Positions 933 to 3,938 of a stretch of 64,000 nt of DNA are shown here, piece after piece (the stretch's first letter is position 1; the number at the start of each line of letters is the position of its first letter). The translations under genes were made by a program, and so were the position numbers. Source of the DNA: Calditrichia bacterium (GTDB lineage Bacteria > Calditrichota > Calditrichia > RBG-13-44-9 > J075); NCBI GenBank assembly GCA_028284905.1, contig JANQQU010000060.1:147226-211225 (forward strand), read 5' to 3'. A model generated the notes under the pieces. It made no database searches, was not told where the DNA came from, and saw only the letters and a program-made list of their open reading frames with translations.

Positions 933-982
933 CAAAAAAAATATTTTTTACGCCAGCCAGCTCACCTGCCGGCGTAAAAAGC
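933..982 (-). terminator. Putative intrinsic terminator downstream of the DUF35 / thiolase / HMGCS operon.
   Basis: Imperfect GC-rich hairpin ('ttacgccagccag...ctgccggcgtaa') followed, on the minus strand, by an A/T-rich run. Confidence 0.35.
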
Positions 983-1008: not shown

Positions 1009-1404
1009 TTAATCGACTGGTGGACGGAATTTGTAGCCATAAAGAATCAAACCGCGTTCGCCCTCTTCGCTAATCTTACGAATCACTTTTTCTACCGGCA
1101 TACCAATCCGAACTTCATCCGGAGAGATATCGGTTAATTGTGTGGTAATTCGGGGACCTTCTTCCAGATCGACCAATGCGACGATATATGGCACAAACGC
1201 CTCGAACTGCCCTGGCGCCTGATAAACAGTGGAATAGCTATATAACTTACCTTTTCCGGAGAATGTAAAAGGTCGCAAGTCTCGGGATTTACACTCACTG
1301 CAAACCAGCACCGGCGGAAAATGCTTCTTGTCGCAACTTGTACAGGCATTGCCTTCCAATAGGTAGCGCTGGTTTCTTAAACGCCAGCTTCTTGGTATAT
1401 CCAT
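1009..1404 (-). CDS. DUF35-family Zn-ribbon / OB-fold protein, the scaffold subunit of the thiolase / HMG-CoA synthase complex.
   Basis: 131 aa with a C-x2-C...C-x2-C zinc ribbon ('CTSCDKKHFPPVLVCSECKS') and an OB-fold tail. It lies immediately downstream of the thiolase and HMGCS genes, as in archaeal operons. Confidence 0.8.
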   Translation of the reverse strand: MDIPRSWRLRNQRYLLEGNACTSCDKKHFPPVLVCSECKSRDLRPFTFSGKGKLYSYSTVYQAPGQFEAFVPYIVALVDLEEGPRITTQLTDISPDEVRIGMPVEKVIRKISEEGERGLILYGYKFRPPVD

Positions 1405-1459
1405 AATATCTCCATTAAACTCTTGTCAGCAGAAATTCTGCGAATTCTTTCTCGAATTT

Positions 1460-2620
1460 TTAATCGCGGCGTTTTAATATAGAAGTAATAACATTCGCGC
1501 CGCTGCCGCCAATATTTTGGGCCATCACACAGTTTGGCGCATCAATCTGCAAGGCATCCGGCGCATCGCCCCGTAATTGGGTGGCGGCTTCCACGATTTG
1601 GTACAGGCCGGTAGCACCGACGGGATGCCCGCGTCCTTTCAAGCCCCCCATTGTCGTCAATGGTAACTTGCCTTTTAAACCAATACTCTCATCGTTTGCC
1701 ATTCGCAGCGCCTGGCCCTTTTCTGCGAAGCCACAAGCCTCCAGGGACAAGGCCGTAATAATGCTAAACGCGTCATGCACTTCAAAAAGATCGATATCCT
1801 GATGGCGGACGCCGGCAGTACGGAATGCTTTTGCGGTACTCCGCTCTACCCCTTTTAACCACAGTGGATCTTCCCGATTGTCCAGGGCGATTGTATCAGT
1901 GCCAATTTCACAAGCGGCAACGGTAATTACCTGTCCGTCGTATTTGTCGGCGTCTTCCGCAGGCACCACCAATACAGCCGCAGCTCCGTCACCGATGGGG
2001 CTGGAATCCAACAAGTTAATCGGATCCGCAACGACTTTCGCAAGATTGTATTGCTCCTGATTTATTTGATTCTGGAACATCGCATTCGGGTTATGGGCTG
2101 CATTCCGATGGGCATTGATAACAAAGGGAGCAAAATCGTTTTTCTCCCAGCCATATTCGTGCATATAACGGCGCATTAATAAAGCATTGATGGCAACAAA
2201 GCTCAATCCGATTGCCATTTCATAATCACCATCAGAAGCAGTTGCCAGACCATGGGTTGTTGCCCGTCCGCTCATTTCGGTTAATTTTTCTACCCCGACT
2301 GCAACAGCGCTATCAATCATTCCCGAAGCAACACCAAGCACAGCCTGACGAAATGCAGCCGCGGCAGACCCACAAGCTGCTTCGATTTTTACCGCTTCTA
2401 TCCCACTGAGCCCAACGCATTCGGCGATCAAGGCTCCCAAATTTTCCTGGTTTGTTAATATACCACTGAGCATGTTTCCCACATACAACGCGTCGACATC
2501 TTCTGCGCCGGCATCATCCATTGCATTCAACACCGCTTTCGCCGCTAACTCACGAAGGCTGATGTCCCAATGTTCTTCTACCGGTGTTTGGCCTATGCCG
2601 ACAATGGCAACTTCTCTCAT
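1460..2620 (-). CDS. Thiolase-fold acetoacetyl-CoA thiolase (SCP-x / archaeal-type acetyl-CoA C-acetyltransferase).
   Basis: 386 aa, thiolase family ('MREVAIVGIGQTPV...', the active-site Cys region 'AACGSAAAAF', C-terminal 'NIGGSGANVIT'). Confidence 0.85.
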   Translation of the reverse strand: MREVAIVGIGQTPVEEHWDISLRELAAKAVLNAMDDAGAEDVDALYVGNMLSGILTNQENLGALIAECVGLSGIEAVKIEAACGSAAAAFRQAVLGVASGMIDSAVAVGVEKLTEMSGRATTHGLATASDGDYEMAIGLSFVAINALLMRRYMHEYGWEKNDFAPFVINAHRNAAHNPNAMFQNQINQEQYNLAKVVADPINLLDSSPIGDGAAAVLVVPAEDADKYDGQVITVAACEIGTDTIALDNREDPLWLKGVERSTAKAFRTAGVRHQDIDLFEVHDAFSIITALSLEACGFAEKGQALRMANDESIGLKGKLPLTTMGGLKGRGHPVGATGLYQIVEAATQLRGDAPDALQIDAPNCVMAQNIGGSGANVITSILKRRD

Positions 2621-2681
2621 TTAATTCTCCAATAAGTTCTAAACAAAAATATTCTGGGCATTCATCTGCCCGTTTCGTTCT

Positions 2682-3740
2682 CTAGTGATGACGAATTTTC
2701 TTCCGCCAACGCGCATAGGTTGCGTAATCCACTTCAACCGATCGCTCCACATAATCACTCGTTGAGGGTGCCCGGTCGCGAATCCCCTCGATTTTATCTG
2801 TGACGACAAAACTGAAGGCATCACTACCAGCCCCGGAGCCAAAGCTTGCTAACAACAGCCGATCCCCCGGCTTGGCAGCGTCTAGGACAGCCGTAAATCC
2901 CAGGGGTGATGCGCCGGCATAGGTATTTCCGATAACCGGCGCCAGCAAGCCAGTATGAATCTGGGCGGAAGTAAAGCCGAGTTGACTGGCAACTTTTTTC
3001 GGGAATTTTGTATTCGGTTGATGGAAAACCGCGGAGGCGAAATCTTTTGGCGTCAGCCCCAAATCCTCCATAAGGATAGATACGGAATTACTGATATGAT
3101 GAAAATACGCCGGTTCGCCGGTAAAACGATTGCCATGCTCAGGATATTTCTGATAAGACCGTCTAAAAAAGTCCGGTGTATCGGTGGTATAGCTAAAGGA
3201 GCCTTCCAGTATTGCAACAGCATCTTTCGCCGGACCAACAATAAACGCTGCACCACCGGCAGCAGCGGTATATTCCAGCGCATCTCCCGGGCGCCCCTGG
3301 GCAGTATCCATAGCGATCGCCAGCGCATACTGTGCCATGCCGCTTCCCGCGAAACCCAACGCTGCCTGCATCGCCTCCGTGCCTGCTTTACAGGCAAACT
3401 CAAAGTCTGCCGCGGTTGTGTGGGGAGCGATGCCCAATGCCTGGGCAACAATAGTACTGGAAGGTTTTACTGCATACGGGTGGGACTCCGACCCTGCCCA
3501 AACAGAGCGAATCAATGCAGGATCTACTTCGGCGCGCTTCAAGGCATTATGTGCCGCTTCTATAGACATTGTAATTGTGTCTTCATCCGGTCCGGGTAAG
3601 CTCTTTTGCTTCACCGGCAGTTTTGCATTATCCTGTCCTCCCCGCCAAAGACGGGCAATTTCGGTAGCTGGCAACCGATAACGGGGCACGTAGGCGCCAT
3701 AGCCGACAATTCCGACAGGCAAACTGGGTTTCATACTCAT
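2682..3740 (-). CDS. Archaeal-type hydroxymethylglutaryl-CoA synthase.
   Basis: N-terminal '[16 protein letters not shown]' and '[12 protein letters not shown]' motifs are characteristic of archaeal-type HMGCS. The ORF track extends to 3776 using a TTG; the more likely start is the internal 'MSMKPS' Met, preceded by a 'gaggtg' SD-like sequence. Confidence 0.8.
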
Positions 3741-3938
3741 TTTCAAGGTAGCACCTCTTTTCAATACATCTAACAACCAATCTCAAATCTTAACTACAAA
3801 CAGAAAGAATGTAAAGTCTTTTATTTACTCCGTAAGAAATTAGGCATTCCACAAAAAATCGTTTCGGGAAAGAGCAATCGTCTATTATATTGCGACCTTA
3901 TACTTTTTTTACAACACCTAAAATTCAGTAGGGTTGAT

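Follow-up and report, generated by a model that had tools for sequence, protein, structure and literature searches.

An archaeal-type thiolase/HMG-CoA synthase/DUF35 operon as the probable mevalonate entry of a Calditrichia bacterium

The closest described counterpart of the system treated here is the complex of acetoacetyl-CoA thiolase, 3-hydroxy-3-methylglutaryl-CoA (HMG-CoA) synthase (HMGCS) and a DUF35 protein from Methanothermococcus thermolithotrophicus, whose structure has been solved (6ESQ/6ET9; the 2018 PNAS article as cited in PMC12960953). Among bacteria, Chloroflexota was described as the only phylum with an archaeal-type mevalonate pathway, and an archaeal acetoacetyl-CoA thiolase (AACT) and an isopentenyl-phosphate kinase (IPK) were also reported from the candidate phyla radiation (Hoshino and Gaucher 2018; PMC6107057). 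A review from 2026 names only Chloroflexota (PMC13001223). We have now analysed a 64,000-nucleotide stretch of the genome of a Calditrichia bacterium (GenBank assembly GCA_028284905.1, contig JANQQU010000060.1, positions 147,226 to 211,225), called the window below, in which three neighbouring genes encode an archaeal-type HMGCS, an SCP-x-type thiolase and a DUF35 protein. This trio is a familiar kind of system, of which we found no printed description for the phylum Calditrichota; no new mechanism is involved. No relevant treatment of Calditrichota (Calditrichaeota) and mevalonate was found in the literature, and the automatic annotation of NCBI already calls Calditrichota proteins HMG-CoA synthase. 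We consider it very probable that the trio is a thiolase/HMGCS/DUF35 complex of the Methanothermococcus kind made from one transcript, that it feeds a mevalonate pathway whose lower part is of the bacterial type, and that this pathway is the sole route to isopentenyl diphosphate (IPP) and dimethylallyl diphosphate (DMAPP).

Identity of the three proteins

HMGCS scored 519.7 bits against TIGR00748 (HMG_CoA_syn_Arc; cut-off 353.35) and 531.7 bits against NF003274 (cut-off 244). Its top match in the PDB was chain I of 6ESQ with 426 bits, whereas MvaS of Staphylococcus aureus gave 82 bits. The protein did not fall with bacterial MvaS, the model of which (TIGR01835) yielded 112 bits at a cut-off of 360. 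The protein is called archaeal-type on the basis of its NCBIfam models and its PDB match and of PMC6107057. The residues of the catalytic tetrad, E97, C129, H252 and N284 (numbered from the start of the longest open reading frame (ORF) at position 3776), are all present, and the aligned positions in chain I of 6ESQ hold the same residues; the same E-C-H-N pattern was found in 93 of the 94 aligned homologues. HMG-CoA synthesis by this enzyme is predicted from the family score together with the intact tetrad.

The thiolase exceeded the cut-off of NF004720 (436 bits against 420) and contains the Pfam domain Thiolase_C_1 (PF22691); with the narrower model NF053570, built for the M. thermolithotrophicus type, it reached 372.7 bits and remained below the cut-off of 600. 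Its best PDB match was 7YVY (398 bits), and chain A of 6ESQ gave 252 bits. The motifs C83-G-S, H282-D-A-F285 and G331-H332 are intact. In the DUF35 protein, both PF01796 (84 bits) and PF12172 (26 bits) were found above their cut-offs, and the top PDB match was chain E of 6ESQ (130 bits over residues 3-128). The zinc-ribbon cysteines C21xxC24 and C35xxC38 are invariant in all 64 homologues compared. Similarly, the catalytic and zinc residues are kept in every Calditrichota copy checked.

These results bear out the first-pass annotation, made from the nucleotide sequence without database searches, which had recognized the first protein as an archaeal-type HMGCS by a 14-residue N-terminal motif (found at residues 22-35 of the ORF), the second as a thiolase of the SCP-x type and the third as a DUF35 protein of zinc-ribbon/OB-fold architecture. 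Its statement that the bacterial MvaE/MvaS pair is unrelated has to be corrected, since MvaS is homologous to archaeal HMGCS, the two being separate clades within one family.

The E-C-H-N tetrad of HMG-CoA synthase and the CxS, HDxF and GHx motifs of the thiolase were described as the marks of true HMG-CoA-forming complexes (PMC12960953). They also decide about the PhlA/PhlC/PhlB and streptococcal MucABC systems, which share the three-protein architecture, are among the PDB matches (5M3K, 9SKH) and would make the trio a Friedel-Crafts C-acyltransferase of secondary metabolism with no HMG-CoA product. PhlABC and MucABC lack both the tetrad and HDxF (PMC12960953), whereas the window proteins retain both, and a PhlABC-like function was rejected on these motifs. 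Moreover, HMGCS matched PhlA with 176-185 bits as against the 426 bits for the archaeal enzyme, and no biosynthetic cluster was found around the operon among the window genes checked. We regard the chance of such a function as negligible.

Thiolase/DUF35 pairs also serve other pathways, as in BbsAB, ChsH2/Ltp2 and the archaeal fatty-acid synthase complex (known from PDB matches and published papers), and the trio might accordingly carry out a different acyl-CoA condensation, such as the acyl carrier protein-independent synthesis of fatty-acid or polyketide starters known for archaeal thiolase/DUF35 proteins. This is very unlikely: the operon includes an HMGCS of equivalog level whose active site is intact, genes for a ketoreductase, a dehydratase or an enoyl reductase do not adjoin it, and the genome, which requires an HMGCS, encodes no other.

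The mevalonate pathway in the genome

The genome assembly (8.55 Mb in 93 contigs, 100% complete; the window lies on the contig that we number C2) contains the trio in single copy, with the sole HMGCS, the sole DUF35 protein and the sole SCP-x-type thiolase; neither MvaS nor a second copy of any of the three was found in it. The lower mevalonate genes form a cluster on contig C21 (locus L094), which encodes type 1 isopentenyl-diphosphate isomerase (IDI-1), a fusion of HMG-CoA reductase (HMGR) and mevalonate kinase (MVK), a phosphomevalonate kinase (PMK)-like protein of the GHMP kinase family and diphosphomevalonate decarboxylase (DPMD). The last enzyme was assigned by TIGR01240 (289.7 bits, cut-off 171), whereas the MvaD-type phosphomevalonate decarboxylase model gave 172 bits at a cut-off of 475. 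A second HMGR, of class I, is encoded on contig C85; within Calditrichota, this class was seen mainly in two families (f1 and f2). IPK was not found in the genome, the best match to NF040647 being 29.9 bits (cut-off 120).

Of the 2-C-methyl-D-erythritol 4-phosphate (MEP) pathway, no Dxs was found above the cut-off in the complete genome (best match 87.6 bits, cut-off 466), and Dxr, IspG and IspH gave no match at all; IspD, IspE and IspF were not searched for. Because these four enzymes were not found, mevalonate is the sole visible route to IPP and DMAPP, and the operon provides its only HMGCS. The claim of the first-pass annotation that the trio is the entry to the mevalonate pathway is thus supported, since the downstream enzymes (two HMGRs, MVK, the PMK-like kinase, DPMD and IDI-1) are present, the four MEP enzymes were not found and HMGCS does not belong with MvaS. 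The further claim of an archaeal-style isoprenoid route holds for the first two steps and fails for the rest, which proceeds by PMK, DPMD and IDI-1 without IPK.

By analogy with the solved homologue 6ESQ/6ET9, and in keeping with the conserved operon, we infer that the proteins form a complex with channelling and that the flux runs as follows. The thiolase would convert two molecules of acetyl-CoA to acetoacetyl-CoA in an uphill reaction, and HMGCS would at once combine this product with a third acetyl-CoA to HMG-CoA in a downhill one. DUF35 would tether the two enzymes, and the intermediate would move between them via a shared CoA-binding site. HMG-CoA would then feed the lower pathway of bacterial type encoded elsewhere, i.e. 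the HMGR-MVK fusion, the PMK-like kinase, DPMD and IDI-1, together with the class I HMGR. A structure prediction of the thiolase, HMGCS and DUF35 complex spoke neither for nor against binding, as a control in which the thiolase was replaced scored equally high.

Several observations weigh against this assignment. The PMK-like kinase reached 119.9 bits and thus stayed below the cut-off of its model (165.7), the trio does not adjoin any other mevalonate gene, and the survey of the MEP pathway covered four of its enzymes. The seven ordinary thiolases of the genome mean that acetoacetyl-CoA could have another source, and complex formation and channelling are predicted purely by homology. Finally, the trio may not be the sole source of HMG-CoA. 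Contig C23 carries an operon resembling methylcrotonyl-CoA carboxylase (MCC), the carboxyltransferase of which matched the MCC beta subunit of Pseudomonas aeruginosa (3U9R chain B) with 741 bits and the beta subunits of propionyl-CoA carboxylase with about 250-270 bits, and no HMG-CoA lyase was found in the genome above the cut-off (best match 58.7, cut-off 246). Since an MCC-like carboxylase is present and no lyase reached its cut-off, HMG-CoA derived from leucine may exist in the cell.

From here it could be argued that the complex runs mainly in reverse, replacing HMG-CoA lyase by splitting HMG-CoA from leucine or isovalerate into three acetyl-CoA molecules, and that mevalonate synthesis draws on the leucine-derived HMG-CoA. 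This would agree with the arrangement in two relatives (L115 and L117, of eight such loci inspected), where a paralogous trio, termed type 2 below, directly adjoins orthologous MCC-type carboxylase genes. The window trio, however, belongs to type 1, in which this adjacency was seen in none of the six loci inspected, and it is not linked to a carboxylase but adjoins genes for an efflux adaptor and a pullulanase. Neither isovaleryl-CoA dehydrogenase nor methylglutaconyl-CoA hydratase was identified. Furthermore, with the mevalonate genes complete and MEP genes not found, HMG-CoA made from acetyl-CoA is needed whenever leucine is scarce. We therefore consider it improbable that the complex works mainly in reverse with leucine as the source of mevalonate; reverse running of the single trio is possible as a side role rather than the main one. 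The synthesis of HMG-CoA from acetyl-CoA remains the preferred assignment.

Gene order, signals and neighbourhood

The ORFs of HMGCS, thiolase and DUF35 all lie on the minus strand at the coordinates predicted beforehand (Table 1), with spacers of 61 nt between HMGCS and thiolase and 55 nt between thiolase and DUF35, in accordance with the earlier description of three co-oriented, tightly spaced genes. The earlier coordinates of the HMGCS ORF were right, but its start probably needs a small correction: translation begins more likely at TTG 3746 or ATG 3740 than at TTG 3776. GAGG, similar to a Shine-Dalgarno sequence, is located 7 nt upstream of TTG 3746, and the start at ATG 3740 yields a protein of 352 amino acids (aa), which is the form found in the database. 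Ribosome-binding sites of the GGAG type precede both the thiolase and the DUF35 genes, that of the thiolase lying 8 nt before ATG.

A candidate σ70-like promoter was found upstream of HMGCS by a consensus scan; such sites are no more numerous across the region than in shuffled sequences, which makes this weak evidence of a promoter. The spacer between HMGCS and thiolase contains a short GC-rich hairpin, and another hairpin is predicted beyond the DUF35 stop codon. The fold of the segment 925-1010 on the minus strand has an energy of -27.1 kcal/mol (z = -3.17 against shuffles); a simple terminator scan made no call there. We propose that the three genes form a single transcription unit.

Table 1 Coordinates of the trio, its candidate signals and the related genes elsewhere in the genome
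Feature	Position	Strand	Remark
Archaeal-type HMGCS	2682..3746	-	354 aa from TTG 3746; longest ORF 3776..2682
SCP-x-type (archaeal AACT-type) acetoacetyl-CoA thiolase	1460..2620	-	386 aa
DUF35 protein, zinc ribbon and OB fold	1009..1404	-	131 aa
Candidate σ70-like promoter	3787..3815	-	TTTACA-17 nt-TAAGAT
Short GC-rich hairpin with U-run	2656..2671	-	terminator-like in scan, visible in the sequence
Terminator-like hairpin followed by U-run	934..980	-	fold prediction
Class II HMGR-MVK fusion	L094:6195-8444 = contig C21:18194-20443	-	749 aa; HMGR residues 1-387, MVK residues 451-724
Class I HMGR	L095:5604-7148, contig C85	+	514 aa; about 140 extra N-terminal residues
MCC-like operon: carboxyltransferase, biotin carboxylase, biotin carboxyl carrier protein	L109:7725-11746, contig C23	+	PDB match

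The genes flanking the operon are unrelated to it and encode an efflux adaptor, a pullulanase, an amylase and a PabB-PabC fusion according to profile searches. Among the other window genes examined, as far as about 31 kb, none was related to isoprenoids. In the minus-strand segment 9075-15227, the PabB-PabC fusion (585 aa) precedes a probable hydroxyproline/D-amino-acid module comprising an FAD-dependent D-amino-acid dehydrogenase, a protein of the proline-racemase family, a GntR regulator and a protein of the dihydrodipicolinate synthase family. The segment 15328-28510 encodes a hybrid sensor kinase of 1417 aa, in which a Reg_prop/Y_Y_Y propeller is combined with two receiver domains. It also contains a TonB-dependent receptor and DUF4249 together with a FecR anti-sigma protein, and a secreted protease-like protein of 1032 aa that carries a type IX secretion system (T9SS) sorting domain. 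The hybrid kinase, the FecR/TonB-receptor set and the T9SS protein are typical features of the Fibrobacterota-Chlorobiota-Bacteroidota (FCB) group. Elsewhere in the genome, a prenyltransferase of the PcrB/geranylgeranylglyceryl phosphate synthase (GGGPS) family (151 bits) is encoded at locus L124 (C85:193828-194514). This is in line with the report of GGGPS in bacteria of the FCB group (PMC6431249).

Distribution in Calditrichota and comparison with known systems

The search of a collection of species genomes yielded 580 related loci, the best 80 of which were analysed. The trio is thus no rarity among bacteria. The best 80 loci belong to Calditrichota and, above all, to Chloroflexota (Anaerolineae and Ardenticatenia), and most of them keep the order HMGCS-thiolase-DUF35. 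The nearest HMGCS sequences come from Calditrichia/Calditrichota metagenome-assembled genomes (84-85% identity), and the best 120 protein matches of HMGCS are all close bacterial relatives.

In 74 of these 80 loci the operon thiolase could be scored for four residues, at least one of which is lost in 65 cases, almost exclusively from Anaerolineae and related lineages (Chloroflexota loci L023-L093). The degenerate proteins usually have glycine in place of the catalytic cysteine and have lost the histidine of the GH motif, and the gene is nevertheless conserved, as if it encoded a non-catalytic subunit. The thiolase is intact in the window, in the other Calditrichota of this set and in one genome of Ardenticatenaceae.

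The survey of the phylum comprised 86 Calditrichota genomes from eight families; the genomes are akin and not independent, and the counts are thus descriptive and do not constitute a statistical test. TIGR00748 was exceeded in 60 genomes, which represent all eight families, whereas Dxr was found in 17, confined to two families. HMGR occurs in 79 genomes, mostly within open frames of about 745-790 aa. As HMGR is mostly found in a frame of this length (about 750 aa), the HMGR-MVK fusion looks to be phylum-wide. Judged by titles and abstracts, a literature search yielded no obvious description of this fusion.

Two paralogous types of HMGCS were distinguished in Calditrichota by protein search. 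The trio with type 1, to which the window belongs (at least 64% identity to the window HMGCS), is present in 45 genomes, none of which has Dxr. Type 2 (51-59% identity) was found in 25 genomes, seven of them with Dxr. The type 2 trio (L110, L112, L114-L118 and L120) has the same gene order and intact catalytic residues, its thiolase is 38-42% identical to that of the window, and it is absent from the genome of the window. We also considered a clean division in which type 1 serves mevalonate synthesis and type 2 leucine breakdown, and dropped it, as the HMGR-MVK gene of those 79 genomes is also found in genomes with type 2 only and in Dxr-positive ones.

A quick maximum-likelihood tree of HMGCS placed type 1 in a clade (98 SH-aLRT, the approximate likelihood-ratio support) which lies among Anaerolineae sequences and encloses one sequence of Ardenticatenaceae. 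Type 2 formed a separate clade (99 SH-aLRT), and both types join a clade containing a Babeliales sequence. The trees are unrooted and contain no named archaeal sequence, and no direction of transfer can be read from them.

By these findings, Calditrichota join Chloroflexota as a second bacterial phylum with the archaeal-type entry to the mevalonate pathway. The combination of an archaeal-type front end with a lower pathway of bacterial type bears on how often modules of the mevalonate pathway are exchanged and recombined between lineages. The findings also lead to the prediction that most members of Calditrichota, among them the cultured Caldithrix abyssi, rely on mevalonate instead of MEP. 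A genome that probably represents C. abyssi carries the trio at L122, with an HMGCS 69% identical to that of the window. A broader picture can be drawn tentatively, and we would put it at slightly less than an even chance. According to it, Calditrichota as a whole would possess a chimeric mevalonate pathway, for which no printed description was found and in which a channelling front end of the archaeal type, its thiolase catalytically active, is joined to a bacterial back end around HMGR-MVK. Of two paralogous front ends, one would cluster with Chloroflexota and the other would sometimes be tied to MCC; the MEP pathway would persist in only two families, and in genomes with a single trio and MCC but without the lyase, the complex may connect the breakdown of leucine with isoprenoid synthesis both ways.

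In comparison with the type 2 trio of Calditrichota, the window trio consists of the same families in the same order but belongs to a separate clade, and among the loci inspected only type 2 is sometimes found beside MCC-type genes. PhlABC and MucABC are alike in the architecture of an HMGS-like, a thiolase-like and a DUF35 protein and differ in the motifs and the product discussed above. The MvaS/MvaE system of Gram-positive cocci carries out the same reaction, and its MvaS is a homologue within the superfamily, but this HMGCS forms another clade and has no DUF35 partner, and the thiolase of the system is of the thiolase-II type. The complex of M. thermolithotrophicus is composed of the same three proteins, which are matched over nearly their full length (426, 252 and 130 bits for HMGCS, thiolase and DUF35, respectively) with the catalytic residues and the cysteines kept; in contrast to it, the complex of the window is a predicted one, its host is a bacterium and the downstream pathway is of the bacterial/eukaryotic type. 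The nearest counterparts outside the phylum are the archaeal-type AACT and HMGCS of Chloroflexota, with the same operon order and an HMGCS identity of 65-76%, the highest value being that of Ardenticatena maritima. Unlike Chloroflexota, which were described with mevalonate phosphate decarboxylase (MPD) and IPK, the genome of the window contains the PMK-like kinase, DPMD and IDI-1 without IPK, and unlike most of the scored operon thiolases of that phylum, which are degenerate, the thiolase of the window has kept its active site.

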